From an uncultured Chloroflexia bacterium (lineage in GTDB: Bacteria > Chloroflexota > Limnocylindria > Limnocylindrales > CSP1-4), in assembly GCA_963795645.1 (NCBI GenBank), contig CAWCIK010000006.1:1298259-1362258 (forward strand): a DNA stretch of 64,000 bases, in the 5' to 3' direction. Made by a program: the position numbers and the translations under genes. Positions 46,292 to 64,000 of the stretch are shown one piece after another. Every line of letters begins with the position of its first letter. The first letter of the stretch is position 1. The notes under the pieces were generated by a model. The model saw nothing but the letters and a program-made list of their open reading frames with translations, made no database searches and was not told the origin of the DNA.

Positions 46292-46370
46292 CGTGAGGCG
46301 AGGATAACCCGCGCCGAAAGTCGCCAACGCCCTTTTTTTGCGCTACTCGGGCTCGATGCACAGATGTGCA

Positions 46371-47216: not shown

Positions 47217-47974
47217 CGACGACGCTACCTGCGCGCCGCTCGGTCGCGTTCCTGTTCGACCTGGACGGCGTGCTGGTCGACACGCACCAGATCGTGATCG
47301 ATGGCTGGCACGCCTTCGCCGCCGAGCGCGGCCGAACGCTCAGCGACCAGGAGATCGTGGAGCGCATGTTCGGGCGCCGAACCGTCGACATCCTGATCGA
47401 GATGTTCGGCATGGACCCTGCCGACGCGGCCGAGCTCGCGACGCACAGCATGGACGACAAGCGAGCCCAGGTGGAGGCCACCGGCGTGCTGCTGGCTGCG
47501 GTGCCCGGAGCACCTGAGTTCGTGCGTGCCACGATCAGGGCCGGCATCCCGTGCGCCGTGGTCAGCTCGGCATCGGGCGGCAACATCCAGCTCGCGTTCG
47601 AGCACATCGGCCTCGCGGGCGTCATCGACGTCGTCATCGCTCACGACCACGTCGAGCACGGCAAGCCGGCGCCCGACCCCTACCTGGCCGGTGCGGCGGC
47701 GCTCGGCTTCACGGCCGGCGAGTGCGTCGTCTTCGAGGACACGGCGCCGGGCATCGAGTCTGCCCATGCTGCGGGCGCACTGTGCGTGGGTGTTGCCTCG
47801 CTGGGCATGCCCGAGATGGTTGCCTCGGCCGACCTGGTCATCGCGGATTTCACCGGCCTTGAGCCGGACGAGCTGATCAGCCGGCTCGACGCGCACGCTC
47901 AGCGCGCAGCGCATCGAGGCGCCAGATCTCGCGATATGTCCACGGCCGTCGGCGGGGGCGAACGCCCGAGCTGA
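47213..47974 (+). CDS. HAD-superfamily hydrolase (beta-phosphoglucomutase-like subfamily IA)
   Basis: Motif I FLFDLDGVLVDT lies upstream of the ORF-track GTG (47270). No ATG/GTG/TTG exists in any frame between 47150 and 47269, so a CTG overlapping the ABC stop (CTGA) is proposed. Motifs VVSSAS (motif II) and GKPAPDPY...FEDTAPGIESA follow. Confidence 0.6.
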   Translation: MTTTLPARRSVAFLFDLDGVLVDTHQIVIDGWHAFAAERGRTLSDQEIVERMFGRRTVDILIEMFGMDPADAAELATHSMDDKRAQVEATGVLLAAVPGAPEFVRATIRAGIPCAVVSSASGGNIQLAFEHIGLAGVIDVVIAHDHVEHGKPAPDPYLAGAAALGFTAGECVVFEDTAPGIESAHAAGALCVGVASLGMPEMVASADLVIADFTGLEPDELISRLDAHAQRAAHRGARSRDMSTAVGGGERPS

Positions 47975-48051: not shown

Positions 48052-48996
48052 TCACCTGGTTGCACTGCTCACCTCCCGCACGACGACCCTGCCCCGGAGC
48101 GCCTCGATCCGCGACGGATCGACCTGGCCCGCGCCGAGCTCGAGCACGCTGGCGCTCGCCGCCGCGCCGGCGGCGGCGAGCGCCTCCACGACTGAGCGAC
48201 CCGCCTCGAGCGCCACGACGAGGCCGGCGTTGAAGACATCGCCCGCGCCGACGGCGTTGACCGCCTTGAGACGCGGCACGCGCACCGTCCAGGCCTGCGT
48301 GCCGTCCGACGCGGCCGCACCGTTGGCGCCGTCGGTCACCACGGCCAGCTGCGCGCCGCGCGCCGCGAGGCGCGCGGCCATCGCACCAGCACCGGCAAAG
48401 GACGAACCTTCCGCGGCACCGGCCTCGCGCGCCTCGGCGAGAGTGACCTTGACCACGTCAGGCGCCGCGTCGAGCGCCAGCCCCAGCGCTTCGCCACCGG
48501 CGTCGACGAGGCACCTGGCCCCGGCCTCGTGAGCGGCGTGCACGAGCTGCGCGTACGAGTCGATCGGCAGGCCTGCGGGCAGCGAGCCCGAGCAGACGAG
48601 CCACGCCGTTCGGGGCAGCAGCTCGGCGCGCAGCTGGGCGATCAACCGCTCGAGGTCGCTCTCGGCCAGCACCGGGCCGGGCTCGTATATGAGCATGGAG
48701 CGGCCTGCCGCATCGGTCGCCACGTAGGTCGAGCGCGTCTCCGGTCCGGCGGTCAGGAAATGGGGTTCGAGGCCCTCCGCCGCCAGCGCCTCGACGAGCC
48801 AGGCGCCGGCATGACCGCCGCAGATACCGGTCGTGGCTACCTGCGCTCCGAGCAGCCGCGCCGCGCGGCAGGCGTTGACGCCCTTGCCGCCGGGCAGGAC
48901 GCGGACGTCGCTGGGGCGCAGGATCGTGTCGAACGCGAGCCGATCGACCAGCGCGGTGCGATCGACGGCCGGCGCGAGGGTGACTCCGACGATCAT
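48052..48996 (-). CDS. PfkB family kinase, 1-phosphofructokinase / tagatose-6-phosphate kinase (FruK/LacC)-like
   Basis: MIVGVTLAPAVDRT N-terminus typical of FruK/LacC; GG lid motif; C-terminal anion hole NAVGAGDVFNAGL; ATGA overlap with the upstream kinase. Confidence 0.8.
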   Translation of the reverse strand: MIVGVTLAPAVDRTALVDRLAFDTILRPSDVRVLPGGKGVNACRAARLLGAQVATTGICGGHAGAWLVEALAAEGLEPHFLTAGPETRSTYVATDAAGRSMLIYEPGPVLAESDLERLIAQLRAELLPRTAWLVCSGSLPAGLPIDSYAQLVHAAHEAGARCLVDAGGEALGLALDAAPDVVKVTLAEAREAGAAEGSSFAGAGAMAARLAARGAQLAVVTDGANGAAASDGTQAWTVRVPRLKAVNAVGAGDVFNAGLVVALEAGRSVVEALAAAGAAASASVLELGAGQVDPSRIEALRGRVVVREVSSATR

Positions 48997-50012
48997 CAGC
49001 CGGCTGCGACCGGGCCGTCGAGCAGCTCTGCCTGCGGCACGCGCTCGAGTGCCTGGTCTATCTGGCCGCGGCCGGCAATCGACTCGGCCCCGCCGCGGCC
49101 GCTGAGGCTGGCCGCGGCGGACGCGGTCGCGAAGCGGGCCGCGGTCGCGATATCGTCGCCGCGCGAGAGCGCATCGAGAAAGCCGGCGTCGAACGCGTCA
49201 CCGGCGCCGACTGCCTCGCGGACCAGTGCCTCGTCGATGCGCACCGCGGGCTGGCGATAGAGCCGTGTCCCGTCGCTGACGACGGCGCCGGCGCCGCCGA
49301 GCTTGATCGCCACCAGACGCGGCCCTGCCGCGTGGGCGGCCGCGACGAGGGCGGGCAGCGTGTCGGCCTCGAAGAGCATTCTTGCCTCGTGCTCGTCGCA
49401 CAGCAGGACGTCCGACTCGCGGACTACATCGGCGACATGCGGCAGCCATGGCGCGGGCGTATCGATCAGTGGAAACTGCGGATCGATCGAGGTCAGCACA
49501 CCCTTCGCGCGGGCCTGCCGGAAGAGCGCCGCCTGGCCGCGATGCCACATCTCCGGGAAGTGCAGCAAGCCGCCCGAGTGGAGCAGCCCGAGCGGGCGCG
49601 CGCCGGGCTCGTCAGCCCACAGGCCGGGCGGGGGATCCGGCCACGGCTCGAAGCTGGGCATGCGGTAGGTCATCGGGCGCTTTATGCCGCCGAAGAGCAT
49701 CACGTAGATCGCGATCGCGGTCACGCCGTCAGCGTCGGCCAGGTGCCGACAGTCCAGGCCGCGCTGCTCGAGCTCCTGCCGTATGGCGGCACCGAAGGCG
49801 TCCGAGCCGACCGTCGAGCAGACGTCGACGTGCCAGCCAAGCCGGGCGAAGACCTGCACGGTGTAGCCGATCGACCCGGCAACGAGCAGGTCGACATCGG
49901 ACGGGCCGACCCACGCGTTAAGCGGCTCCCGCTCAAGGGGTGCCGTGCCGCGCATGAAGAGGTCCATGTTCAGCGGCCCGATGACGGCCACACGCGGCCG
50001 TGCGTCGCTCAT
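48996..50012 (-). CDS. PfkB family carbohydrate kinase (ribokinase-like)
   Basis: 338 aa from MSDARPRVAVIGP; GAGDAFDAGFL motif. The ORF's N-terminal 263 codons are spurious. Confidence 0.8.
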   Translation of the reverse strand: MSDARPRVAVIGPLNMDLFMRGTAPLEREPLNAWVGPSDVDLLVAGSIGYTVQVFARLGWHVDVCSTVGSDAFGAAIRQELEQRGLDCRHLADADGVTAIAIYVMLFGGIKRPMTYRMPSFEPWPDPPPGLWADEPGARPLGLLHSGGLLHFPEMWHRGQAALFRQARAKGVLTSIDPQFPLIDTPAPWLPHVADVVRESDVLLCDEHEARMLFEADTLPALVAAAHAAGPRLVAIKLGGAGAVVSDGTRLYRQPAVRIDEALVREAVGAGDAFDAGFLDALSRGDDIATAARFATASAAASLSGRGGAESIAGRGQIDQALERVPQAELLDGPVAAG

Positions 50013-50026
50013 AGGTTCGTGATTGC

Positions 50027-51325
50027 TCAGTGCGTCCCGGGCGGGAAGAGCATGTTCCAGACGCGGGCGTGCTTGGGCACGTTCGAGCGCTGCGTATCGG
50101 GGTTGAGACCCAGGCCGACGCCGCAGTAGTAGGGGATGAGCTGGCCGGGCAGGACGGCCAGGACGGTGAACAGCACCTCGTCCTCGATCGGCAGGCGGAC
50201 GACGTAGTCGACGATGTCGGCGATCTTGTCGTCGTTCTGGCTGACGATCGCCACGGCCGGGCTCTTGAGCTGCTCGGTCACGCGGGCGATGTCGTGCAGG
50301 TCGCCATACGAGTCGCCCGGTGGCGCGACGAGCACGGTCAGGATCGATTCCTCGGTCAGGCCCAGCGCGCCGTGGATGTGGCGCCCGGGGTTCATCGACT
50401 TGGCCGGGATATGGCTCATCTCGTCGAACTTGAGCGCGATCTCCTCGGCCGTGCCGAAGTTCGCGCCGGCACCCACGACGAGCACGCTGCGCACGCCGAG
50501 GAACATGTCGGCGATCGTCCGGCAGCGCTTGTCGACAGCATCGAACATCTCGCCCATCAGGCGCGGCGTGTCGAGCAGCTGCGCCTGGAGCTTGTCGAAG
50601 TCGAACTTGCCCGGGTTGCGCAGCTTGCCCAGCTCGAGGGCCAGGTAGATCGCCGCGGCGATTCGAGTGGTGTAGTGGAAGGTGTCCGAGCCGCCGGTGT
50701 CGAAGCCGCCGGCGGTCAGGATGCGCGCGTCGCTGGCCTGCACTACCGGGCTGCCCTCGACGCTGGTGAGCGAGAGGGTGTACGCGCCGCGCTCGCGGCA
50801 CTCGCGCGCCGCGGCGACGGTGTCGACGGTGCTGCCGCTGCCCGAGTAGGCGACGGCGAGCAGCTTGCTGTAGTCGTACGGCGGCGGATAGCGCAGGAAC
50901 GCCTGCGAGTCGTAGTCCCAGCCGGGCACGCCCGCGAAGCGGGCAAAGGCCGCGTTGGCGACCTGGGCCACGAACTGCGAGGTGCCCGAGCCGAGACCCA
51001 CGATGCCCATGAAGTCGCGCTCGGCCAGCGTGCGCGCGACCTGCGCGATCTCGTCGGCGTGCTCGAAGGTCCCGCGCAGCGCCGAGGGCTGGCTCTTGAT
51101 ATCGCCGTACAGGTTGAACGGGTGATGGGTCTGGGCCGGAGTGCCGAGCGCCTTGTACATGATCGGCTCTTCGCCGGTCGCTTCGATCTGCTCGCGGATG
51201 TCGCCGACGATGCCCCAGGTCTTGATGCGCTGGCCGCGTTGCCGGACCTCGTCAAGGTCGACGGGTGCGCCGTCGGCCGATCCAGCGGCGCTCGGGGCCG
51301 TGCCTCGGTCGTGATCCTGTGGCAT
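50027..51325 (-). CDS. Double-SIS-domain sugar-phosphate isomerase/deaminase (AgaS/GlmS-C/FrlB-like)
   Basis: C-terminal 432 codons of the 1245-codon ORF. Own start ATG preceded by AAGGAG with an 8-nt spacer. Two SIS domains (GLGSGTSQFVA... and VVGAGANFGTAEEIALK...). Confidence 0.75.
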   Translation of the reverse strand: MPQDHDRGTAPSAAGSADGAPVDLDEVRQRGQRIKTWGIVGDIREQIEATGEEPIMYKALGTPAQTHHPFNLYGDIKSQPSALRGTFEHADEIAQVARTLAERDFMGIVGLGSGTSQFVAQVANAAFARFAGVPGWDYDSQAFLRYPPPYDYSKLLAVAYSGSGSTVDTVAAARECRERGAYTLSLTSVEGSPVVQASDARILTAGGFDTGGSDTFHYTTRIAAAIYLALELGKLRNPGKFDFDKLQAQLLDTPRLMGEMFDAVDKRCRTIADMFLGVRSVLVVGAGANFGTAEEIALKFDEMSHIPAKSMNPGRHIHGALGLTEESILTVLVAPPGDSYGDLHDIARVTEQLKSPAVAIVSQNDDKIADIVDYVVRLPIEDEVLFTVLAVLPGQLIPYYCGVGLGLNPDTQRSNVPKHARVWNMLFPPGTH

Positions 51326-53248
51326 GTCGTTCAACTCCTTGCGTGGATGCCAGCGCCAACCCGGGTGGTCCGGCCGGCTCCAGCCGCCGCGGGGCGGCTG
51401 GGAGGCCGACCGCGGACCAGGCACAGGTCCGCTGTCTGATGTGCTCGATCGGGATCCGGAAGCCGCGGCGGAGCCCGCGCTGCGCTCGTTCCTTGGCGGC
51501 ATGAGCGGCAGTGCCGGACGTCCGCCCGGTGCGGCGTGCGTCGCGCCATCCGTCGTGGCGGAGGGCACTGCCGGCCGGCCGTTCATGCCGGCGACCGCGC
51601 GGACGGCCTCATCGCGCAACCGGTTGCGCTGGACCTTGCCCGATTCGGTCATCGGGAAGGACTCGACGAAACGCACGTAGCGCGGCACCTCGAACCGGCC
51701 GAGGTGCTCGGCCAGGTGGCGCAGCAGCTCGTCCTCTGTCAGCTGCGCGCCTGCCGCCGGCCGCACGAAGGCGAAGATCTCCTCGCCGTAGTACTCAGAG
51801 GGCACGCCCACGACGTGCATCTCGGCGACCTTGGGGTGGCGCCGGCCGGCCGACTCGACCGCAGCCGGGTCGATGTTCTCGCCGCCGCGGATGATCATGT
51901 CCTTGATCCGTCCGACGATGCGCCAGACGCCGCTCGCGTCGACCGTGGCCAGGTCGCCGGTGTGCAGCCAGCCCTGGCGGTCGATAGCCTGGGCCGTTTC
52001 AGCGGGCATGTCGAAGTAGCCGCGCATGACCATCGAGCCGCGCGTGACCAGCTCGCCGGGCGTGCCGGCTGCGACCGGCTTGCCGGTGGCCGGGTCGATC
52101 GCGCGCACCTCTGCCCCCAGGATCGGCCGCCCGACACTGCCCAGGCGCACGTCCTCGGGATCGTCGATCGAGGTCTGGGTCACGACCGGCGCCGCCTCGG
52201 TCAGGCCGTAGGCAACGACCAGCTGCGGGATGTGCAGCTCGTGCGCCACGCGCCGACCCAGGTCGACCGGCACCGGGGCGCCGGCGATGATGCCCGTGCG
52301 CAGCGAGGACAGGTCCGTTCGCGTCCGCTCGGGGCTCTCGAGCAGGGCGACGAACATCGTCGGCACGCCATAGAGCACCGTGCAGTGCTCGGCGGCGACC
52401 GAGCGCAGCACAGCGTCCGCGTCGAAGACCTCGGACGGCAGCACGATGGCCGCCCCGTAGGTAACCGCCGCGAGCGTGCCCATGACCGCCCCGAAGCAGT
52501 GGTGGAAGGGGACCGGCAGACATACTCTGTCGCCGTTCGAGAGGCGGATGTTGGCGCCGACGGCAGCCGCGTTCTGGAGCATCGCCCGGTGCGTCAACTG
52601 GACGCCCTTGGGGAAACCGGTCGTGCCCGACGTGTACAGGATCATGCTCACATCGTCGGGCTGAGTCCGGCTCGCGGCGCGCGCCAGCTCGGCTTCGCTC
52701 GTGCCTTCGGCCGCGGCCGTGAAATCGGCCCAGCGCATGGCCGCGCCGGGAACGTCGGCGACCTCGGGCAGGGCAACGACGCGGCGCAGCGAGCGCGGCC
52801 CCTCGCCGCGAGCCAGGCGATCGAGGAGCGCGGTGCGCGGCTTGCGGTGAGTGCCGGCGATGAGCATGGCGGCCCCGGAGTTGGCCAGGATCTGCTCGAT
52901 CTCCTCGTCGCCCAGGCCGGCGTTGGCCGTGGCCACGATCACGCCCGCGTACGCCGCGCCGAGCTGCACGAGTGGCCACTCGGGCGCGTTGCGTGCCCAC
53001 ATGACGACCCGCTCACCCGGCGTGACGCCGAGCGCGAGCAGGGCGCGGCCCACCTGCTTGGCCTCGGCGTGGAGCTCGGCATAGTCGAGGCGCCTGCCGC
53101 TCGAGGCATGGACGAGAGCCTGACGCTGGCCGTTGCTGCGTGCTGCCCGATCGAGCAGCGCTCCGATGGTCGCGCTGCGCAGCTGGGGTTGGTGGCCGTT
53201 GCTGCCGGTCGCGGCCCTGCGCGCGAAGCCCGCCGGCGGCGCTGCGAC
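51326..53248 (-). CDS. AMP-forming acyl-CoA synthetase/ligase (FadD-like), reading through without a stop into the SIS gene frame
   Basis: Motifs ILYTSGTTGFPKGV, YGLTE, TGDL, IKDMIIRGGENI, ESGKVQR. Then an 85-aa low-complexity Pro/Ser/Arg tail with no stop codon before the SIS ATG. In another frame a TGA sits inside the SIS SD (AAGGAGTTGAACGACATG), as expected for a natural gene end. Boundaries approximate. Confidence 0.6.
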
Positions 53249-53764
53249 GGCGGCAAAGGCGGGCGTGGCCAGCAATGCGCCGAGCTCGGTCGCCCTGACC
53301 AGCAGGCCGGCCGCACCGCTGCGCAGCATCTGGTCGACCTCAGCGACGCCGGAGGCGGTGCCGATGACCGTCACACCCGGCGTGTCGCGCAGAGCGTCGA
53401 CCAGTGCGGGATCGCGCACGACGAGGGCGGTCGCGCCGCTCTCCACCGCGCGCCGCGCCTCGGCCGCGTTGGCGACCTGGGCCGCGATCGGCGCGCGACC
53501 GCGGCGGACGAGCTCGGTCACGAGCTGGTCTGTTGTCTCTGCCGGGCGATACAGGATGCCGGCACGGACCGGCAGCCGGGCCGCGAGCTGGGCGGGCGCG
53601 ATCTTGCCGTCGCGCTCGTCGATGCGCATGCACAACGTGTCGCCGGGCCGGCCGTAGAGCGGGCTGCTCCCGTTGACGACGATGATCGCGGCGATGCCCG
53701 ACGCGCGCGCGGCATCGAGCCCGGCGCGATCCTCGACCTCGACCCACAGGGCGGGCGTGCTCAT
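53249..53764 (-). CDS. Unknown about 170-aa alpha/beta domain (no confident family), first reading frame after the BMC shell genes; in frame with the ligase with no intervening stop
   Basis: ATG at 53764 overlaps the BMC-T stop (ATGA). Alternating hydrophobic beta-strand and Ala-rich helix pattern (GIAAIIVVNGSSPLYG ... ALVVRDPALVDALRDTPGVTVIGTASGVAEVDQML). Weak resemblance to KDPG-aldolase/OMPDC-like TIM folds, but catalytic Lys not found. Confidence 0.45.
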
Positions 53765-54411
53765 GCCGCGCTCCTGCGCGCGCCGCCGTCACGGCCGCTG
53801 AGCGATGCGAGCGCATCGAGTGCGCGCTCCTGGGCGATGCGCACGCTCGACTCCTCGCCGCTCACGTACAGCCGCCCGAATCGCCCGATGGGCCTGACAT
53901 CGATGATGTCGATATCTGCCGCGCGCTCGGCCTCGTTGGCGGCGAGCAGGATGTACGCCGCCGGCGTGACCTCGAGCACGAGCAGCGTCTCCTGGGGCAC
54001 CAGCAGCGAGCCCTTGCGGAAACGGTTCACCAGCTGGGCCTGGAAGGGCGTCACGTTGGTGATCAGGTTCTGCGACACGACCTGCGGTCGAAGGCGGTCG
54101 CCCTCGCTCAGGCCGATCCGCTCGAGAATGACGCGGCCCGCCTCGGCGACTTCCTGCGGGTCGGTCGCGTGGAGTGAGAGCATGCCGAACTCGCGCTCGA
54201 CGACCTGCGAGCTCGGACGCACGTTGGTCGCCTTGAGCGCCGCGTCGGCGAGCAGGTATATCTCGTTGCCCGGGGCGACCTCGATGAACAGCTGGGCCAT
54301 GCCGACGAGCGGGATGTCGCCATCTGCAACGGTCGCCTCGTAAGCCGCATAGCGCGGCTGCATGCGCGAGACGATGCCGTAGGCACGCAGCTCTCGACCG
54401 GCTCCGGGCAT
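53761..54411 (-). CDS. BMC-T shell protein (tandem/permuted BMC domains, EutL/PduB-like)
   Basis: Two BMC-like repeats (LFIEVAPGNEIYLLADAALKATNV and LLVLEVTPAAYILLAANEAERAADIDIIDV). Paralog of the BMC-T gene at 54707-55333. Start 3 nt after the EutN-like stop. Confidence 0.75.
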   Translation of the reverse strand: MPGAGRELRAYGIVSRMQPRYAAYEATVADGDIPLVGMAQLFIEVAPGNEIYLLADAALKATNVRPSSQVVEREFGMLSLHATDPQEVAEAGRVILERIGLSEGDRLRPQVVSQNLITNVTPFQAQLVNRFRKGSLLVPQETLLVLEVTPAAYILLAANEAERAADIDIIDVRPIGRFGRLYVSGEESSVRIAQERALDALASLSGRDGGARRSAA

Positions 54412-54414
54412 CAC

Positions 54415-54705
54415 TCAGACCTTGGTGTACTTGATCTTGCCGCCCTGGCGGACGGATTCGACGATGGCCACGATCGCGGCGTCGACGGGCACGCCATCGA
54501 TGCCGAGGGAACGTGCGGCCGGCGTGCCGCGCACGACGATGACCAGCTCCCCTTCGCCGGCGCCGACCGAGTCAGCCGCCACGTAGGCCTGGCCGGTGCC
54601 GGAACCATCGGCCGCTGCCTCCTCAACGAGGAGCAGCTTCATTCCTGTCAGCCGCGGCTCCTTGACCGAGGCTACGGCGCTGCCGACAACTCGTGCGAGC
54701 TGCAT
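54415..54705 (-). CDS. BMC vertex protein (BMC-P; EutN/PduN/CcmL family)
   Basis: 96 aa: MQLARVVGSAVASVKEPRLTGMKLLLVEE...GELVIVVRGTPAARSL...AAIVAIVESV is the EutN_CcmL fold signature. Strong SD GGAGGAGG. The ORF's upstream part is spurious. Confidence 0.85.
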   Translation of the reverse strand: MQLARVVGSAVASVKEPRLTGMKLLLVEEAAADGSGTGQAYVAADSVGAGEGELVIVVRGTPAARSLGIDGVPVDAAIVAIVESVRQGGKIKYTKV

Positions 54706-54706
54706 C

Positions 54707-55333
54707 TCAACCTCCTCCCGCGCCAACCGGCGCGACGCTCGATTCGCTGCGCAACGCGTCCACGACGGCGAGTGCCGTCTGCTCCGCAGCTGCGGCGTCC
54801 GCTTCGGTCCCGGCGACGAGCAAGCGTCCGAACAGACCCGTGCCGGCGACGCGCACCAGCTTGATGTCGACCGCCTTCTCGAGCTCGTTGGCCAGCACAT
54901 AGACGTACGCGGCGGGCGTGACCTCCATCACGAAGAGCGCGTCGCCGGGCAGCGTCCAAGCGCCGCGCCGCACCTTGTTGAACAGCTGGCTGTGGTCCGG
55001 AGCGATGTTCGGCAGCAGCTGGGTCGAGACCACTCTCGGCTCCAGCCGGTCGGACATGCGCATGCCGAGCTCGTCGAGGATCGCCTCGGATGCCTCGAGC
55101 ACCACGTCCGGCGCAGGCGCGTGGAGCTCGAGCAATCCGAAGTCACGCTCGATCAGCGTTCCCGCCGACCGAACGTCGCTGGCCTTCATGGCCCGATCCG
55201 TCAACGGGAAAACGGCATTGCTCGGCGAGACCTCGACCAGCAGCTGCGAGTACCCGGCACGGGGCATCGAGCCCTGTGCCATCAGCCCCCAATAGGCCGC
55301 GTACTGCGGACCCATGCGGTCGACATGGGCCAT
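54707..55333 (-). CDS. BMC-T shell protein (tandem/permuted BMC domains, EutL/PduB-like)
   Basis: 208 aa from MAHVDRMGPQYAAYW. Repeats LLVEVSPSNAVFPLTDRAMKASDV and LFVMEVTPAAYVYVLANELEKAVDIKLV. The ORF's long N-terminus is spurious. Confidence 0.78.
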   Translation of the reverse strand: MAHVDRMGPQYAAYWGLMAQGSMPRAGYSQLLVEVSPSNAVFPLTDRAMKASDVRSAGTLIERDFGLLELHAPAPDVVLEASEAILDELGMRMSDRLEPRVVSTQLLPNIAPDHSQLFNKVRRGAWTLPGDALFVMEVTPAAYVYVLANELEKAVDIKLVRVAGTGLFGRLLVAGTEADAAAAEQTALAVVDALRSESSVAPVGAGGG

Positions 55334-55368
55334 CACCCGCAGGCTGGTGCCGCTCGAGGCGGCGATCG

Positions 55369-55665
55369 TCACCCTTCGGCGACCATGATCGACTCGACCG
55401 CGTCGTCGGGCCGGGCGATGACGTGCTGGCTGACGAGCTCGCCGACCTTCTGGGCAGCCATGCCGCCGGCCTCGACCGCGGTCTTCACCGCGCCGACCTC
55501 GCCCTTGACGATGACCGTGACCAGGCCGTCGCCGACGAGCTGGCGCGACATGAGCGTGACCTGGGCCGCCTTGACCATTGCGTCGGCGGCCTCGACCGCG
55601 GCCACCAGGCCACGTGTCTCGATCATGCCGATTGCCGTTCCCGCTCCGCGGGCTGACTCTGCCAT
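55369..55665 (-). CDS. BMC-H shell protein (PduA/EutM/CcmK-like hexamer)
   Basis: IGMIETRGLVAAVEAADAMVKAAQVTLMSRQLVGDGLVTVIVKGEVGAVKTAVEAG is the canonical Pfam BMC (PF00936) sequence; SD AAGGAGG. Confidence 0.9.
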   Translation of the reverse strand: MAESARGAGTAIGMIETRGLVAAVEAADAMVKAAQVTLMSRQLVGDGLVTVIVKGEVGAVKTAVEAGGMAAQKVGELVSQHVIARPDDAVESIMVAEG

Positions 55666-55725
55666 TTCGGTTTCCTCCTTGTCCTTGCCTGAGATTGCCT
55701 TTGATTGACGGGGTGGCTGCTGGGC

Positions 55726-56019
55726 CTAGGGCTCCCTCCCTTCGAAGCGGAAGGCTCGATCGACCTCTTCGAACAGGCGCCCGAAAGTGCGCCCGCCGAT
55801 GAGCGTTCCCAGCCGGGAGGCCACCGCGCTTCCCGCGGCGACGGCCTCGTTGACCGCGGCGATGTCGCCGCGACATACGATCGTCACCAGCCCGTCGCCG
55901 ATAAGCACGGGGCCGGCGAGCCTGACCGGGGCGGACTTGGCCATCACGTCGGCAGCTCCGATCGCCCCGGTCAATCCACGCACCTCGACAAGTCCCACAG
56001 CACTGCCTCCGCCGCTCAC
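55726..56019 (-). CDS. Divergent BMC-H shell protein
   Basis: VGLVEVRGLTGAIGAADVMAKSAPVRLAG...GLVTIVCRGDIAAVNEAV matches the BMC domain core, but the C-terminus diverges. GTG at 56019 overlaps the Fe-ADH stop (GTGA); an internal GTG at 55998 with a GGAGG SD is an alternative start. Confidence 0.8.
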   Translation of the reverse strand: MSGGGSAVGLVEVRGLTGAIGAADVMAKSAPVRLAGPVLIGDGLVTIVCRGDIAAVNEAVAAGSAVASRLGTLIGGRTFGRLFEEVDRAFRFEGREP

Positions 56020-57158
56020 AGGGCGCGCTCGAACAGGCGCACCACGTCCTGCTCGCTCATGGGCCGCGGGTTGGTGGTCATGGTCAGATCAGCCATCGCG
56101 CGCGCGGCCAGATCCGGGATGCGCTCGCGCTCCACCCCAAGTGTGCCCAGGCCCTTGGGCAGCCCGATGCGGTCTCCGAGCCGGCGCAGCAGCGCAGGCA
56201 GGCGACGCGCGGACGCGCCCGGGGCGAGGATGCGCGCGACGCGCGCGTAGCGCTCACGAGCCGCCGGCTCGTTGTACTCGACGACATGGGGCAGCACGAT
56301 CGCGTTGCAGATGCCGTGGGGCAGGTCGTAGACGCCGCCCAGCGCGTGGGCCATGGCGTGCACCGCGCCGACGAGGGCCGAGTTGATCGCCAGCCCGGCG
56401 AGCAGCGCGCCGAGCATCATCGAATCGCGCGCCTCCAGGTCGTCGCCGTCCTCGACGGCCCGCTCCAGTGAGCCCGCGATCAGCTCGACCGCGCGCAGGG
56501 CATAGAGGTCGGTCATGTCCGACGCGAGCGTCGACACGTATGCCTCGATGGCGTGCGTCAGCGCGTCGAGGCCGGAGGCAACGGTCACGTTGCGCGGCAG
56601 TCCGACCGTCAGCAGCGGATCGTTGATCGCCAGGCGGGGCATCAGGTGCCGGTCGGCGATGATCATCTTCAGCTCGCGCGCAGGATCGGTGATGACCGCG
56701 TAGCGGCTCACGTCCGCGCCGCTGCCGGAGGTCGTGTTGACGCAGATCAGGGGCACCGAGCGATGCGCCGAGCGATCGACGCCCTCCAGGTCGCGTATTT
56801 CGCCGCCGTTGGCCGCGACGAGGGCGACGGTCTTGGCGCAGTCGTGCGCGCTGCCGCCGCCGACAGAGACGACGACCGCGACGTCGCGCCCGGCGCCGGC
56901 GTCGAGCGCCTCCTCGACCTGGCCGACGGTCGGATTTGGTTCGACTCGATCGAACACGATCACCTCCACGCCGGCGTCGCCCAGAGTGCGGTCGACGGAG
57001 CGCAGGATGGAGCTCGCGGCCAAACCGCGATCGGTGATGACCAGAGCTGTGCGCCCATAGCCTCGTGCGGCGGGGCCGAGCGTCGACAGCGCGCCGCGGC
57101 CGAAATTGATGCGCGGCGGAAGGTGGATCTCGGCGACGGACGGCATGCTCGCGGTCAT
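56016..57158 (-). CDS. Iron-containing alcohol dehydrogenase (FucO/PduQ/EutG-like)
   Basis: 380 aa; GGGSAHDCAK NAD-binding motif; Fe-ligand histidines (HAMAHALGG...LPHGICNA). Start ATG overlaps the ALDH stop (ATGA). Confidence 0.88.
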   Translation of the reverse strand: MTASMPSVAEIHLPPRINFGRGALSTLGPAARGYGRTALVITDRGLAASSILRSVDRTLGDAGVEVIVFDRVEPNPTVGQVEEALDAGAGRDVAVVVSVGGGSAHDCAKTVALVAANGGEIRDLEGVDRSAHRSVPLICVNTTSGSGADVSRYAVITDPARELKMIIADRHLMPRLAINDPLLTVGLPRNVTVASGLDALTHAIEAYVSTLASDMTDLYALRAVELIAGSLERAVEDGDDLEARDSMMLGALLAGLAINSALVGAVHAMAHALGGVYDLPHGICNAIVLPHVVEYNEPAARERYARVARILAPGASARRLPALLRRLGDRIGLPKGLGTLGVERERIPDLAARAMADLTMTTNPRPMSEQDVVRLFERAL

Positions 57159-58651
57159 CGGTCGCTCTCGGCGAACCAGTCGGTCGAGTGCTCGGCGAGG
57201 TTGACGTAGACGTTCTTGACCTCGGTGAACGACTCGATCGCGTGCGGCCCGTTCTCGCGTCCCCAACCGCTCTGACGGAAGCCGCCGAATGGTGCCTCGC
57301 TGGTGACGACGTTGTACATGTTGACCCAGATCGTGCCCGCCCTGATCGCGCGCGCCACGCGGTGCGCGAGCTTCACGTCGCGCGTCCAGACGCCCGCGGT
57401 CAGGCCGAAGATCGTGTCGTTGGCGATCCGGATCGCGTCCTCGGGCGTGTCGAAGGGCATGATCGCCACGACCGGGCCGAAGATCTCCTCGCGCGCAATG
57501 CGCATCTCGGGATGAATGTCGACAAAGACTGTCGGCGCTATGTAGTTGCCCCGCGCGAGCTCCGGCGCGGACGGCTTGACGCCTCCGATCAGCAGTCGCG
57601 CACCTTCCTCCCGACCTGAGCGGATGTGGTCCATGACGCGCGAGCAGTGGGTCGGCGAGATCAGTGGCCCGACGTCCGTCCGTGGATCAAGCGGATCGCC
57701 CATGCGCAATGCACCGGCGCGCTCGGTGAAGCGGGCGACAAAGGCGTCGAAGATGGGCCGCTGGACGAGCAGCCGCGAGCCGGCCGTGCAGATCTGACCC
57801 TGCGTCCAGAAGACGCCGAAGAGCGCGCCTGCGACGGCATCCTCGAGGGGCGCGTCCGCGAAGACGATGTTGGGCGCCTTTCCGCCCAGCTCGAGCGACA
57901 CACGCTTGAGGTTGCCTGCCGCCCCGGCGGCGATCTGCTTGCCAACGTCGGTCGAGCCGGTGAACGTGATCTTGTCGACGTCGGGGTGCTCGACCAGCGC
58001 CTGGCCGACCTTCGAATCTCCGATGACGACGTTGATCACGCCGGGCGGCAGGCCCGCTTCCTGGCAGATCTCGCCCAGGCGCAGTGTCGTCAGCGGCGTG
58101 TCGGACGCCGGCTTGATGACGACCGTGTTGCCCGCTGCCAGCGCTGGTCCGAGCTTCCAGGAAGCAAGCAGGAGCGGGAAATTGAAGGGCGTGATCGCGC
58201 CGACCACGCCGAGCGGCTCGCGCAGCGTGTAGCTCAGCACGTCGCCCGGAACCGGCAGCGTCTCGCCGGTGATCTTGGTCGCGAATCCGGCCCAGTACTC
58301 GAAGCAGTCGGCCGAGAGCGGCACGTCGATCTGGCTGCTCTCACGGATCGGTTTGCCGTTGTTGCGCGTCTCGAGCTCGGCGATGGCCTGGTTGTCACGC
58401 TCCATCAGAGCGGCGACGCGGAGCAGGTAGCGTCCGCGCTCGCTGGCCGACATGCGCGGCCACGGCCCCTCGTCGAACGCGCGCCGCGCCGCGGCAACGG
58501 CGGCATTGAGGTCGCGCAGGTCACCGGCCGGGACCTCGGCCAGCGGCTCGCCCGTGGCCGGGTTGTGGACGGTGGTCAGCCGGCCGCTGGCAGGCGCGAC
58601 CCAGCGGCCGTCGATGAGCTGGTTGGGGAAGGTCAACAGCGGGCTCGTCAC
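57155..58651 (-). CDS. NAD(P)-dependent aldehyde dehydrogenase, classical non-acylating type (AldA / betaine-aldehyde-DH-like)
   Basis: ITPFNFPLLL, VIKPASDTPLTT, ELGGKAPNIVFADA, GQICTAGSRL (catalytic Cys), EEIFGPVVAI, PFGGFRQSGWGRENG. Not the PduP/EutE acylating type. GTG start placed at MTSPLLTFPNQLIDGRW; a CTG overlapping the permease stop is an alternative. Confidence 0.85.
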   Translation of the reverse strand: MTSPLLTFPNQLIDGRWVAPASGRLTTVHNPATGEPLAEVPAGDLRDLNAAVAAARRAFDEGPWPRMSASERGRYLLRVAALMERDNQAIAELETRNNGKPIRESSQIDVPLSADCFEYWAGFATKITGETLPVPGDVLSYTLREPLGVVGAITPFNFPLLLASWKLGPALAAGNTVVIKPASDTPLTTLRLGEICQEAGLPPGVINVVIGDSKVGQALVEHPDVDKITFTGSTDVGKQIAAGAAGNLKRVSLELGGKAPNIVFADAPLEDAVAGALFGVFWTQGQICTAGSRLLVQRPIFDAFVARFTERAGALRMGDPLDPRTDVGPLISPTHCSRVMDHIRSGREEGARLLIGGVKPSAPELARGNYIAPTVFVDIHPEMRIAREEIFGPVVAIMPFDTPEDAIRIANDTIFGLTAGVWTRDVKLAHRVARAIRAGTIWVNMYNVVTSEAPFGGFRQSGWGRENGPHAIESFTEVKNVYVNLAEHSTDWFAESDR

Positions 58652-58659
58652 GGCCGCGG

Positions 58660-59610
58660 TCAGTCCCTGAACCGGTCGAGCGAGATGGCCACGATCAGGA
58701 TCGCGCCGAGCAGGACACGCTGGTACTCGGAATCGACGTGGAGCAGGATCAGGCCGTTGAGCAGGCTGGCCAGGAAGATCGACGCTATAAGCGTGTTCTC
58801 GATCCGGCCTCGACCGCCCTGCAGTCCGGCACCGCCGAGGATGACCGCGGTCAGGACCGGAAACAGCGCCGCATCGCCGAGCGACGCCGTCGCCTGCGAT
58901 ACGCGCGATACCCAGACCACTCCACCCAGGCCGGCCAACGCCCCAGCTGCGATGAAGACGGCCATCCGAATCCGATTGACGCGGATGCCCGCACGGAACG
59001 CCGCCTCGCGGTTGTCGCCGACGAGGTAGACATGGGCGCCGAACGGAGTCCGGTTGAGGATGAACCAGGCGATCGTGTAGCCGATGAACATGAGCAGGAC
59101 CGGGATGGGCACGATGCCGATGTAGCCGCCCGCCAGCCAGTCGATCGGATCGAGCGCGGGACCGGTGATCGCGTGGCCCTGCGTATAGACCAGGCCAATG
59201 CCGAGCACGACGCTGAGCATGCCCAGAGTGGCTACGACCGACGGGATGCGGAAGAAGGTCACGAGTGTGCCGTTCACCACGCCGACAAGCGTGCCGATGA
59301 GAACCGCGGCGCCGATCGCGATGATCGGGTCGTAGCCCGAGACGAGCAGCTCCGCGGCGGTCACGCCGGCGACGCCGATGACGCTGCCGAACGAGAGGTC
59401 GAGCTCGCCGACCAGGATGACGAACGTCGCGCCGATGGCCGGGATGGCATAGATCGAGGCCTGGCGCAGGAGGAGCGGGATATTCCGCTCGGTCAGGAAC
59501 GTGTCCGTGGTGAACGACAGGAAGATGATCCAGCCGATGAAGAAGACGATGAAGCCGTAGTCGGCCAGGAAGTCGATGACGCGGACCCGGATGGGCGTGC
59601 GGTGCAGCAT
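58660..59610 (-). CDS. Sugar ABC transporter permease (RbsC/BPD_transp_2 family)
   Basis: 8-10 TM segments and the conserved GG.G...N.L...D.G motifs of monosaccharide ABC permeases. ATG at 59610 chosen (a TTG at 59664 is the alternative). Confidence 0.8.
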   Translation of the reverse strand: MLHRTPIRVRVIDFLADYGFIVFFIGWIIFLSFTTDTFLTERNIPLLLRQASIYAIPAIGATFVILVGELDLSFGSVIGVAGVTAAELLVSGYDPIIAIGAAVLIGTLVGVVNGTLVTFFRIPSVVATLGMLSVVLGIGLVYTQGHAITGPALDPIDWLAGGYIGIVPIPVLLMFIGYTIAWFILNRTPFGAHVYLVGDNREAAFRAGIRVNRIRMAVFIAAGALAGLGGVVWVSRVSQATASLGDAALFPVLTAVILGGAGLQGGRGRIENTLIASIFLASLLNGLILLHVDSEYQRVLLGAILIVAISLDRFRD

Positions 59611-59630
59611 GGGGACGTCGGCCGCGACGC

Positions 59631-61793
59631 TCACGAGGCCGGCTCCAGGCGCAGCACGGCACAACCCTGCGGCGGCACCTCGAACGTGAACGACACGACA
59701 TCTTCGTCGCCGGTCGCGTTGTTCGCCGCGATCGGCGGAGCCGACGCGTTGACGCTGACCGCGTTGTAGGCGACGCCGGCCTCAAGGCCGACTCTCGTGC
59801 GCGGCAGGTTGACCGTGACCTGGCGCGCAAAGCGCGAGTCGCCCATCCAGCCCGACTCGAGGTTGCCCAGCAGCAGGTGGATGCGCCCATTGCTACGCCA
59901 GCAGCTGACCGTGACCGGCTCGTGGGCGGCCACCTGGTCGACGCTCAACCCACCGCTTTGGGCGGCGCGATCGTTGAGCAGACGGGCGACCTCCACGTAC
60001 GGGTTGACGCTGCCGATCTGCGAATGAGGGACGAGCGGGTTACCCGGGTCGGCCAGGTCGGGCGGTTGCCAGTGGTAGACGCCGTCGCGACCGGCGAGAA
60101 GAGGCAGACCATCGGACGCGTAGCCGATCCAGGTGCCTTCGTCGGCGCTCAGCGCGCTGCGCTCGGGCAGGTGAACACGTTCCTCGGGCGCCAGGTCGTG
60201 GCTCGACGGCGCTCCGAGACGGTAGCCATCGGGCTGGCGTTCGCCGGTCAGGGCGACGCCCGCCGCGGTCAGGAGCGCCGGCTCGACCAGGTCCGCCCGG
60301 CCGCTGCCGACGAGTGCACCCCAGCGGCCATCGAGCTTTCCCGCTGCCGCTGCCGACGGCATCTGCCAGAGCAGGCCGTCGGGCCACTGCCCGGGCAGCC
60401 ACTCTGGGCGGCTGGCGGCCAGGAAGGCCGCCCCCCATTTGAGCGCCATTCCGGCATAGTCCTCGGCCCACTCGCTGCCGTTGCTGGCCGGGTCGTGCTC
60501 GTACTTGGCCTCGAGGCCGGCCCGGTCATGGACGAGCAGCGGCCCGAAGACGGCCTCGATGCCAGCGGCGCTCGACTCTGCCGCGGCCAGCCGCGTGGCA
60601 AGGAAGTCGACGTCCTGCGTGCTGATCAGGCGCTTGTTCCAGTCGTTCATCCAGCTGATGTAGGTCCCCTCGGGAACCACCGGCCGGCCGTCGCGATCGA
60701 GCACAGCGGCGTGGCCGAAGGCCCACATCGCCCATTCGAGCTTTCCCGGCGTGTCGTGCAGCGTGTCCCACGGCTCCCAGCCGTCCCAGGTCTCGATCAA
60801 GTTGTATTGGCGGCACGGGCTTGCCCCTGTCGCGGCGCGCGTCTCGTTGCCGCCGCGGATCTGGGCGCCGTGGCCGAGCAGGTAGGCGAGCTGGAAGGTC
60901 CAGCCCTTCCAAGTGTCATCCCACCAGTCTTGCCAGGCACCGCCCCAGGTCTGGTCGATGAAGATGTCGAGTGCGCCGTCGGCGACTATCGCCTCCAGGT
61001 CGACGCAGCCGGCGAGCCACTCCGACGTGCCGCTGATGCCGCTCGAATAGGTCATCACCAGGCCTTCGGGATGGGCTTCCTTGCACGCCCGGAAGAGGCG
61101 CCGGACAGCGTCGGTCCACGAGCGGTTCTCGTCCGGGTCGCTCGAGGCGACGCTGCCATACGGGCCTACGCGGGTGTAGAGCAGCGGGCCGAACATGCCG
61201 TCGCGCAGGTGGATCAGGTCGAGCCCGAGATAACGGGCGACCGAGCCCCACTGGGCGCCGAAGAACTCTGGAAAGGGCTCGCCCTCGGCGATGCCGTCGG
61301 GCCGAGTCGCGTAGCGGTACGAGTCGGCATGAAGCCGCACTCGAGGATCGAGGTCGGGTCCGGGCAGGGGCGAGATGTCGAGCGGATAGAGCTCGGGATG
61401 GCGGTCGTACCAGAACGAATAGAGGTCGTACATGCTGCCCGTATCAGGCGGGGCCACGACCTGGCCGAGACCGGCGATGAGCACGCCCATCTTGATGTCG
61501 GTCAGGCCGTGCGCGGCATACGCCGCACGGAGCGAGGAGATGAACTCGCGCAGGTCGGCATAGCTGAGGCCGGCCCAGCGCGCGTAGCGGCGGGAGCGGA
61601 GCGGCAGCGGCTGGTCGCCGCTGCCGCTCCATTCGGTTACGAGATCGGCCAGCCAGCCGATGTTGAAGCAGACGCCGCGCAGATCACGCTCACCCGCCAA
61701 CAGGGGCAGGGTGCGCTCGGCAAACTCGACCTGGCGGTCGGCCCAGGGCCGTTCGCCAAACCAGTCGATGTCCACCTCGATCCAGCGGTCCAC
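59631..61793 (-). CDS. Hypothetical 720-aa cytoplasmic protein (Trp-rich; possibly glycoside-hydrolase-like TIM barrel) embedded in the sugar ABC transporter gene set
   Basis: GTG start with GAGGGAGA SD 25 nt after the SBP stop; no signal peptide; many W/Y/D residues (QTWGGAWQDWWDDTWKGW); no family recognised. Confidence 0.55.
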   Translation of the reverse strand: MDRWIEVDIDWFGERPWADRQVEFAERTLPLLAGERDLRGVCFNIGWLADLVTEWSGSGDQPLPLRSRRYARWAGLSYADLREFISSLRAAYAAHGLTDIKMGVLIAGLGQVVAPPDTGSMYDLYSFWYDRHPELYPLDISPLPGPDLDPRVRLHADSYRYATRPDGIAEGEPFPEFFGAQWGSVARYLGLDLIHLRDGMFGPLLYTRVGPYGSVASSDPDENRSWTDAVRRLFRACKEAHPEGLVMTYSSGISGTSEWLAGCVDLEAIVADGALDIFIDQTWGGAWQDWWDDTWKGWTFQLAYLLGHGAQIRGGNETRAATGASPCRQYNLIETWDGWEPWDTLHDTPGKLEWAMWAFGHAAVLDRDGRPVVPEGTYISWMNDWNKRLISTQDVDFLATRLAAAESSAAGIEAVFGPLLVHDRAGLEAKYEHDPASNGSEWAEDYAGMALKWGAAFLAASRPEWLPGQWPDGLLWQMPSAAAAGKLDGRWGALVGSGRADLVEPALLTAAGVALTGERQPDGYRLGAPSSHDLAPEERVHLPERSALSADEGTWIGYASDGLPLLAGRDGVYHWQPPDLADPGNPLVPHSQIGSVNPYVEVARLLNDRAAQSGGLSVDQVAAHEPVTVSCWRSNGRIHLLLGNLESGWMGDSRFARQVTVNLPRTRVGLEAGVAYNAVSVNASAPPIAANNATGDEDVVSFTFEVPPQGCAVLRLEPAS

Positions 61794-63908: not shown

Positions 63909-64000
63909 GAGGCCTCCTCTGTCTGTTTGGCCCTGAACCGTGGGCTCCATCCCCCGTTGTGTTGCTGCCGGCCGTCCCGTTCCCTAATGCGGGTATTCAG

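Follow-up and report, generated by a model that had tools for sequence, protein, structure and literature searches.

What can a folded domain of no recognised family contribute to a bacterial microcompartment (BMC) when it stands directly behind the shell genes and at the head of a ligase? The question is raised by a 64,000-nucleotide stretch of contig CAWCIK010000006.1 from an uncultured Chloroflexia bacterium (assembly GCA_963795645.1), hereafter the window. In it, residues 1-175 of the product of a minus-strand open reading frame (ORF; 50027..53764, 1245 residues, ATG start) form a conserved alpha/beta domain, termed here the orphan domain, which is followed by an AMP-forming acyl-coenzyme A (CoA) synthetase, a linker of about 110 residues and a GlmS-type double SIS domain. 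The orphan domain was predicted to fold as a (beta-alpha)8 barrel. The reading that we favour, with about an even chance of being correct, is that of a non-catalytic module for structure, assembly or encapsulation, specific to a sugar-phosphate microcompartment that has not been catalogued.

The orphan domain and its predicted fold

The ORF opens with MSTPALWVEVEDRAGLDAARASGIAAIIVVNGSSPLYGRPGD, and both peptides, IAAIIVVNGSSPLYG and ALVVRDPALVDALRDTPGVTVIGTASGVAEVDQML, from which an earlier, sequence-only reading had deduced a regular beta-alpha periodicity are present at its start. That reading had placed the edge of the domain at 53249. A domain was found there, with a boundary nearer residue 175 (53240) than residue 172, and the SIS moiety at the C-terminus of the same polypeptide had gone unmentioned. 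The in-frame G+C content of third codon positions (GC3) was 0.83-1.00 over the first 180 codons. Against the closest homologue, L004 (85% amino acid identity; related loci are cited by number with L, single proteins with P), the ratio of nonsynonymous to synonymous substitutions (dN/dS) was 0.19 for the orphan domain and 0.15 for the ligase part. The N-termini of the family are alike (MSxxxxLWVEV). Because of the GC3 and dN/dS values and the matches of a family hidden Markov model (HMM) given below, the flagged region is a genuine coding sequence under purifying selection.

The ATG of the fusion ORF (53764-53762) overlaps the TGA (53763-53761) of the 217-residue BMC-T shell gene in a 4-nt ATGA, as had been claimed, and the overlap was kept as ATGA in L001 and L003, as GTGA in L006 and as TGATG in L005. 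The further suggestion that this coupling hints at function carries little weight, because the other minus-strand genes in the cluster are likewise spaced so tightly that they touch or share a few bases.

The ligase domain exceeded the Pfam gathering scores for adenylate-forming acyl-CoA synthetases (PF00501, 317 bits; PF13193, 69 bits) and matched an NCBIfam fatty-acid CoA ligase family (6.7e-170); its relatives in the PDB are generic acyl/aryl-CoA ligases. The SIS domain matched the NCBIfam GlmS isomerising family (1.5e-41) and the isomerase domain of GlmS (PDB 1moq, 3.6e-24), and is thus a predicted double-SIS phosphosugar isomerase/deaminase of the GlmS/AgaS/FrlB type; its NCBIfam scores lay under the full-length GlmS cut-offs because the glutaminase domain is absent. 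Between fusions, identity was 38-42% in the orphan domain, 57-65% in the ligase and 72-86% in the SIS domain.

Two short motifs are conserved in the linker, RPALPLMPPRN (consensus (R/G)xxLPL(M/L)xxK/R) and GWSRPDHPGWRWHPRK (consensus GW(S/T/E/Q)RPxxxxWxWxP). Both align across the window, L003, L004, L005 and P0005, and they are candidates for shell- or partner-docking peptides. The linker is missing from standalone 411-residue SIS homologues (88% query coverage). Read-through was suspected there, G+C content being higher at second than at third codon positions, and is countered by the same architecture in unbroken ORFs of 1221, 1233 and 1236 residues in L003, L005 and P0005; the L004 ORF continues through the linker up to the end of its contig.

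AlphaFold2 (AF2) run on the single sequence was uninformative (predicted local distance difference test, pLDDT, 52), and a model based on an alignment of 13 sequences, several of them fragments or frameshifted, was used instead (pLDDT 88.4; predicted template modelling score 0.85). This single model contained eight strands (residues 5-10, 25-31, 44-47, 69-72, 93-97, 113-116, 132-136 and 153-157) and at least eight helices, in keeping with the periodicity noted earlier, and predicted a complete (beta-alpha)8 barrel, or triosephosphate isomerase (TIM) barrel, in about 165 residues. The predicted beta-to-alpha connections on the catalytic face were only 2-3 residues long. No helix was present between strands 25-31 and 44-47, where helix alpha-2 is replaced by a loop.

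A Foldseek search of the PDB with the model, a check that the sequence-only reading had proposed, returned TIM barrels with probability 1.0 and template modelling (TM) scores of 0.66-0.73. The top natural matches were the smallest class I aldolases (E 4e-7 to 5e-6, 12-17% identity, root-mean-square deviation (rmsd) 3.6-6 Å), and the de novo protein sTIM11 was matched with a TM score of 0.66 and an rmsd of 3.4 Å. When the family profile was compared with the PDB, designed TIM barrels (E 2e-7 to 1e-5) scored better than any natural protein; natural matches were weak (IMPDH, KDPG aldolase at E 0.2, and PdxS; E 0.02-0.7). The predicted barrel is shorter than all of the natural matches and slightly shorter than sTIM11.

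The de novo TIM barrels (sTIM11/DeNovoTIM; 5bvl, 6yqy, 7osv, 7mcd) resemble the orphan domain in having about 170-185 residues, eight beta-alpha units, minimal loops and recurrent 'helix-GA-x-x-L-V-V' alpha-beta junctions, and the orphan domain, as modelled, also appears pocket-less. Unlike them it is natural, under purifying selection and fused to two enzymes, it has an invariant YGRPGD loop in place of helix 2, and clear sequence repetition is limited to quarters 3 and 4. We regard it, on the evidence of the model, as a new family with a known fold.

As to the repetition itself, quarter-barrel 3 (residues 92-130) resembled quarter 4 (131-169) with an hhalign P of 4.5e-5, and in six members of the family (window, L004, L003, P0004, L005 and P0011) the two aligned with scores that exceeded those of shuffles by z 3.2-4.5; the similarity of quarter 1 was weak (P 0.014-0.04). 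The likeness of quarters 3 and 4 could be the trace of a beta-alpha-beta-alpha duplication or convergence from a shared secondary-structure pattern.

Conservation was computed from at most 16 sequences, and positions were assigned to the two faces of the barrel from the one AF2 model. The only run of invariant residues lies in the loop that replaces helix 2 (Y37, G38, R39 and P40, 100% conserved, followed by G41 and D42 at 87%). R13, R39, R67 and R90 are invariant, and R20, R88 and R126 nearly so. Not one column of the alignment holds a conserved Lys or His; K54, the sole Lys of the window copy, varies among relatives. Of the positions in the predicted alpha-to-beta loops, which form the stability face, 17 of 35 were at least 85% conserved (G38, R39, P40, G41, L64, P65, R67, A68, R88, R90, P92, G110, A111, R126, S149, G150 and M1). 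The corresponding count in the predicted beta-to-alpha loops of the catalytic face was 1 of 20 (Y37), and these loops were the least conserved class, lower even than the helices. Catalytic residues of TIM barrels sit at the C-termini of the strands, with elongated beta-alpha loops; stability resides in the alpha-beta loops, and minimal-loop designs are without cavities for binding or catalysis (PMC11081422). By this standard the orphan domain, with its short loops and its counts of 1/20 and 17/35, does not look like a catalytic TIM barrel, and in the model its conservation pattern is inverted relative to that of enzymes.

Restriction to microcompartment loci

The domain had been called unrecognised, and no credible match in Pfam or NCBIfam was obtained for residues 1-180 of the window copy or for 16 family members at E≤10; the only noise, a PA domain and Mur_ligase at E ~0.03-0.1, was dismissed. 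It is also rare. An exhaustive phmmer search of 1.84 billion cluster representatives gave 12 matches, 11 of them credible and most of them fragments, and word-indexed searches added three fragments. Scans of GTDB species genomes and of metagenomes from the Joint Genome Institute (JGI) yielded only four more loci. The fusion protein of the window is a singleton cluster. The carriers are a few uncultured soil bacteria, those with a name being 'uncultured Chloroflexia' metagenome-assembled genomes (MAGs) and Candidatus Dormibacteraeota. Five other loci (uncultured Chloroflexia, metagenomes) have the same fusion, again placed behind the shell genes. An 850-residue repeat protein, P0012 (E 6e-4), was judged a false positive.

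Against six-frame ORFs of all fetched loci, the family HMM matched once per BMC locus (E 1e-60 to 1e-75) and had no match in the non-BMC cassettes L007-L013. Flanking context was at hand for the window, L001/L002, L003, L005 and L006 (L004 is without it), and in each of these the orphan domain is fused to the ligase and directly follows the shell genes. The orphan domain is restricted to BMC loci. Co-occurrence with shell genes elsewhere, which the sequence-only reading had proposed to check, was found, and no housekeeping family lacking such synteny emerged as a match.

Three proteins in which the domain seemed to stand alone (P0001, P0004 and P0006) were rejected as frameshift artefacts; their tails resemble out-of-frame ligase, as expected of split genes in long-read MAGs. 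In the Microflora Danica-type long-read MAG contigs of L001/L002 and L006, the BMC-T gene, the barrel-ligase junction and the ligase are split by apparent frameshifts, and such splits give rise to spurious 'standalone' barrel proteins in databases. In P0007, a partial protein of 259 residues from Candidatus Dormibacteraeota, strand 6 or 7 seems to be the last of the barrel, so that the final quarter is missing, and the start of the ligase lies some 45 residues further towards the N-terminus than in the proteins from Chloroflexia. This points either to tolerance of a truncated barrel or to faulty assembly of the short contig.

Standalone proteins of 411-415 residues, 55-85% identical, make up the large family to which the SIS moiety belongs. 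Among its settings is a cassette without shell genes (L007, L008, L012 and L013) that encodes a SorC-type regulator, a sugar-binding protein, an orphan protein of about 715 residues, a permease, the SIS protein and a PfkB kinase. The version in a Streptosporangiaceae MAG (L009/L010; L009 10001-14015) adds a second PfkB and a 283-residue class II aldolase (F_bP_aldolase, PF01116), and this extended cassette resembles an Aga-like amino-sugar/tagatose-bisphosphate route. Barrel and ligase are both absent from five non-BMC versions of the cassette, and from the gene content the BMC module looks like an insertion into it.

Because the second PfkB of the window passes the cut-off of the 1-PFK/hexose-kinase family, a path from ketose 6-phosphate to ketose 1,6-bisphosphate and on to aldol cleavage is suggested. 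In the non-BMC operon the L009 aldolase fills this aldehyde-generating step. The BMC version keeps the second kinase and is without the aldolase: a tblastn search of the 64-kb window and all BMC loci with the L009 protein gave nothing below E 0.5, and when about 35 ORFs of the window were scanned with Pfam, none matched DeoC, F_bP_aldolase, Aldolase_II or transaldolase.

A structural module and its alternatives

In the reading that we favour, residues 1-175 would be an autonomous, very small (beta-alpha)8 barrel without a conventional TIM-barrel active site, carried by a conserved three-part polypeptide; of a widespread cassette for sugar utilisation, it is the microcompartment version alone that has this polypeptide. 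We infer that the domain is non-catalytic. The barrel may offer a surface for self-association or docking that helps the ligase-SIS fusion to assemble with the shell or to be encapsulated by it. A candidate for this surface is the conserved Arg/Pro/Gly-rich face of alpha-to-beta loops together with the invariant YGRPGD loop, and the two linker motifs may act jointly with it. Whether its partner is the shell, the ligase or the barrel itself is a matter of speculation.

The barrel would substitute for the short encapsulation peptides lacking on the aldehyde dehydrogenase (ALDH) and the Fe-dependent alcohol dehydrogenase (Fe-ADH) of the locus, neither of which has a terminal extension of at least 20 residues able to carry one. 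Because these two enzymes are without extensions and the PfkB kinases are equal in length between BMC and non-BMC loci, the only BMC-specific sequence of non-enzymatic character is the barrel, the connector and the linker motifs. Consistent with this reading, the orphan domain evolves faster than ligase and SIS domain yet remains constrained. Its rarity, its confinement to BMC loci, its minimal predicted fold and the presence of a non-acylating ALDH where no PduL was detected also count in favour. The sequence-only reading had named either a signature enzyme or an encapsulation or scaffold module; given that Lys and His are nowhere conserved, and given the unconserved catalytic face and minimal loops predicted by the model, the second appears to fit better.

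Encapsulation peptides of the PduP/PduD type are N-terminal amphipathic helices of about 18 residues. The extension found here differs from a terminal amphipathic helix of some 15-20 residues in being a 175-residue folded barrel, followed by a flexible connector (residues 176-195), and its shell targeting is putative. It resembles encapsulation peptides and scaffolds (PMC8217296) as a BMC-locus-specific, non-enzymatic-looking cargo extension with a poorly conserved linker. Carboxysome organisers of the CcmM/CsoS2 type are likewise multi-domain polypeptides with disordered, motif-bearing linkers, but there is no sequence similarity to CcmM or CsoS2.

Several points weigh against a structural module. 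TIM barrels are overwhelmingly enzymes, and we are not aware of any earlier case in which a folded TIM barrel serves to target proteins to a BMC. Since the BMC version keeps the second kinase and is without the aldolase, the operon appears from its gene content to miss a catalytic step, which this domain could supply, and the arrival of the barrel coincided with that of shell, ALDH, ADH and ligase. In the model, the invariant YGRPGD loop could combine with the invariant R13, which lies at the C-terminal end of strand 1, into a small site for ligand binding or catalysis. The topology of the faces comes from one AF2 model of 13 sequences, some of them fragments or frameshifted, and the conservation from no more than 16. 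The step from a non-catalytic domain to one that binds the shell or itself is one that we infer. The truncation in P0007, if real, would argue against a strict need for a closed barrel.

If the structural module is nevertheless taken to its full consequence, the orphan domain would be the smallest natural TIM barrel yet seen, almost as idealised as the de novo designs, with a quarter-barrel repeat still recognisable in its sequence and without an enzymatic role. Serving encapsulation or nucleation as a folded domain, it would found a new class of elements that target cargo to BMCs; with the two linker motifs it would organise an uncatalogued sugar-phosphate BMC in which a non-acylating ALDH and an AMP-forming ligase replace the core of acylating aldehyde dehydrogenase (AldDH) and PduL. 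We put this extended version forward tentatively, as possible though doubtful.

The best of the alternatives, in our view rather unlikely, is that the barrel serves the ligase as an accessory and has no part in targeting. As a small domain for ligand binding, regulation or oligomerisation, it would modulate the acyl-CoA synthetase or feed it, and its conserved Arg residues might, for instance, sense a nucleotide or a phosphorylated sugar. Its restriction to BMC loci would follow from that of the ligase, which is likewise missing from the non-BMC cassettes. The orphan domain is always directly N-terminal to this ligase, and the four invariant and three near-invariant Arg residues suggest anion or phosphate binding. 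Most of these Arg residues, however, lie in alpha-to-beta loops, where they are commonly structural clamps, and the standard phosphate-binding Gly-rich beta7/beta8 loops are not conserved. Nor do the PDB relatives, which are only ordinary ligases, supply a ligase family known to have such a module.

We hold it clearly improbable that the signature enzyme missing from the locus is to be found in the mini-barrel, as a divergent lyase or aldolase that would cleave the ketose bisphosphate of the second PfkB, or a related intermediate, inside the compartment and pass the released aldehyde to the adjacent ALDH and Fe-ADH. The gene content gives this proposal its appeal: the L009/L010 operon ends SIS-PfkB-PfkB-F_bP_aldolase, neither PF01116 (by tblastn, in window and BMC loci) nor an aldolase family (in the scanned window ORFs) was detected in the BMC version, and it is that version which gained the orphan domain. 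The earlier suggestion of an aldolase-like step was also right in so far as the predicted fold comes nearest to small class I aldolases and the operon is without a class II aldolase. These nearest natural structures, transaldolase/FSA (3r8r, 4xz9, 1vpx, 4rxg) and KDPG/KDPGal aldolase (2v82), are likewise compact single-domain TIM barrels and act on sugar phosphates, and the top Foldseek matches among them (3r8r, 4xz9, 1vpx; 2v82) reached E ~4e-7 and TM ~0.7.

The same matches, however, have 12-17% identity and an rmsd of 4.5-5 Å, and may reflect only that these are the smallest natural barrels. The small class I aldolases have 198-225 residues, compared with about 165 here, and the orphan domain conserves neither their Schiff-base lysine nor their other catalytic residues. 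No lysine is conserved on beta4 or beta6, nor anywhere else as a Schiff-base nucleophile, and none of the 16 members matched a Pfam model of class I aldolases (TAL_FSA/Aldolase) at E≤10, or any other Pfam aldolase. The class II tagatose/fructose-bisphosphate aldolase of L009 (PF01116, GatY/KbaY-like, 13164-14015) is a TIM barrel as well, but one of 283 residues with His/Asp metal ligands; the orphan domain is without these, has no conserved His to serve as a class II Zn ligand, has no Pfam match to the family and has no detectable homology to the protein. That it is a degenerate remnant of such an aldolase was rejected: hhalign of the barrel family with the L009 aldolase gave a probability of 0.2%, with only a local resemblance over 21 columns (TELVRRGRAPIAAQV and HELARQSRVPVALHL). 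Conservation in the orphan domain is lowest on the catalytic face, with its predicted beta-alpha loops of 2-3 residues, and the domain as a whole changes faster than either of the enzyme domains. The step could also be taken over by a housekeeping aldolase encoded elsewhere in the genome. Because the catalytic residues are absent, the conservation inverted and the evolution fast, the orphan domain was filed neither as a class I nor as a class II aldolase.

Finally, that the flagged region is a spurious N-terminal extension or mis-joined ORF of a high-GC genome, without a folded domain, is so improbable as to be effectively refuted: long spurious ORFs are frequent in DNA of 68% GC, and among the database relatives several come from long-read MAGs and are fragments with frameshifts, but in-frame GC3 is ~0.9 and dN/dS low, the N-termini are conserved, full-length fusions are unbroken in the window, L003, L005 and P0005, the AF2 model is confident and the family HMM matches once in each BMC locus.

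The surrounding locus and its meaning

In all five loci with context the genes follow in the order sugar-binding protein, orphan protein of about 715 residues, permease, ALDH, Fe-ADH, BMC-H, BMC-H, BMC-T, BMC-P, BMC-T, barrel-ligase-SIS fusion, PfkB and PfkB (see table).

Features of the fusion gene and its neighbours (window positions; all on the minus strand)
Feature	Position	Strand	Basis or remark
Orphan domain, residues 1-175; by prediction a minimal (beta-alpha)8 TIM barrel	53240..53764	-	AF2, Foldseek; without Pfam/NCBIfam match
PLYGRPGD loop, residues 35-42, in place of helix alpha-2	53639..53662	-	AF2 and alignment
Quarter-barrels 3 and 4	53258-53491	-	hhalign
ATGA stop/start overlap of BMC-T gene and fusion ORF	53761..53764	-	sequence; kept in L001, L003, L005, L006
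Poorly conserved connector, residues 176-195	53180..53239	-	0-31% identity among homologues; pLDDT <50 from residue 176
AMP-forming acyl-CoA synthetase, residues 196-725	51590..53179	-	Pfam AMP-binding 1.5e-94, AMP-binding_C 7.9e-19
Pro/Ala/Gly/Ser-rich linker, residues 726-835	51260..51589	-	composition; two conserved short motifs
Linker motif 1, RPALPLMPPRN	51488-51520	-	alignment
Linker motif 2, GWSRPDHPGWRWHPRK	51338-51385	-	alignment
GlmS-isomerase-type double SIS, residues 836-1245 and stop codon	50027..51259	-	Pfam SIS, two stretches
BMC-T shell protein, copy 2 (CcmP/CsoS1D-like), 217 residues	53761..54414	-	NCBIfam CcmP 1.3e-67; Pfam BMC
BMC-P pentamer (EutN/CcmL), true start probably internal	54415..54900	-	Pfam EutN_CcmL 1.5e-25, residues 66-147
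BMC-T, copy 1 (CsoS1D-like)	54707..55372	-	resembles copy 2; weak Pfam BMC match
Two BMC-H genes	55369-55665, 55726-56019	-	Pfam BMC 2.2e-27, 2.8e-18
Fe-ADH, lactaldehyde-reductase/ErcA-like	56016..57266	-	without terminal extension
NAD(P)-dependent ALDH, canonical non-acylating	57155..58660	-	Pfam Aldedh 2.3e-182
PfkB 1, ribokinase/fructoselysine-kinase-like	48996-50030	-	library scans
PfkB 2, 1-PFK/tagatose-6-P-kinase family	48052-48996	-	passes TIGR03168 cut-off
Ribose-type ABC permease	58660-59781	-	library scans
Trp-rich orphan protein, 720 residues	59631-61793	-	position between sugar-binding and permease genes
Periplasmic sugar-binding protein	61818-63950	-	library scans

Two BMC-H genes, two BMC-T genes, EutN, Aldedh and Fe-ADH are contiguous (53761-58660), as in a metabolosome locus. 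The canonical core of CoA-acylating AldDH and PduL/Pta was not found. The ALDH is non-acylating (NCBIfam betaine-aldehyde-dehydrogenase-like, 569 bits), an AMP-forming ligase is present and no phosphotransacylase (PduL/Pta) was detected among the locus ORFs scanned; a CoA ester would have to come from the ligase at the cost of ATP. Orthologues of BMC-T copy 1 in L001 and L006 matched CsoS1D_N.

In the catalogue of Sutter et al. 2021 (PMC8217296), the SPU type is defined by DeoC and RpiB, and ARO, ACI, MIC, MUF, BUF and FRAG are among the other types. Neither SPU signature (DeoC, pfam01791; RpiB, pfam02502) was matched in any locus or window ORF scanned, and PF00501, PF01380 and PF00294 are absent from the supplementary files of the catalogue (PMC8217296). 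The locus shares two BMC-H, two BMC-T(dp), BMC-P, a pfam00171 ALDH and an Fe-ADH with catalogued metabolosomes (SPU, MIC, MUF and ARO; PMC8217296), the sugar-phosphate theme with SPU, and an AldDH without encapsulation peptide with ARO and MIC2 (PMC8217296). It differs from them in lacking DeoC, RpiB and phosphotransacylase (PTAC), and none of those described unites an AMP-forming ligase, SIS and PfkB. No description of such a locus in Chloroflexota or Dormibacterota was found in the literature. From this gene content we regard the locus as an uncatalogued metabolosome variant.

Gated double-stacking trimers are thought to admit larger metabolites. Two paralogous genes for CsoS1D/CcmP-type double-stacking BMC-T proteins flank the sole BMC-P gene, an arrangement kept in L001 and L006, and such gated trimers would suit ATP, CoA or sugar phosphates.

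The Trp-rich orphan protein (about 715-728 residues; also L003 1926-3746, L005 1621-3807, L007 6839-8980, L009 6114-8267 and L012 6103-8256) had no Pfam, NCBIfam or PDB match. It is kept in BMC and non-BMC cassettes and in MAGs of Chloroflexota and Actinomycetota. It may process glycosides, as an enzyme that has so far gone unrecognised, and thereby define the substrate.

Downstream of the operon and on the opposite strand lie genes for an ABC ATPase and a HAD phosphatase (46416-47216 and 47270-47974, plus strand), followed by a TIGR03842-family F420-dependent LLM oxidoreductase (45287-46327, minus strand). Synteny of the ATPase-HAD pair extends to L001 and L006; in L001 the pair is followed by the LLM gene (Bac_luciferase). 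The ATPase probably completes the sugar transporter.

The locus represents a metabolosome type unmatched in the 2021 catalogue, with an unusual core of non-acylating ALDH, Fe-ADH and AMP-forming CoA ligase and with neither PduL nor a recognisable aldehyde-generating enzyme, and its cargo appears to be organised as a 1245-residue three-domain fusion. The same sugar cassette occurs with and without the module of shell, ALDH, ADH, ligase and barrel, one of the non-BMC versions having a class II aldolase, and so provides a contrast for experiment. A natural minimal-loop (beta-alpha)8 barrel of about 165 residues would be the natural counterpart to sTIM11-type designs and a test case for quarter-barrel duplication models. 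Knowledge of its function would reveal either a new principle of targeting and assembly, of use in shell engineering, or a new catalytic route to an aldehyde.

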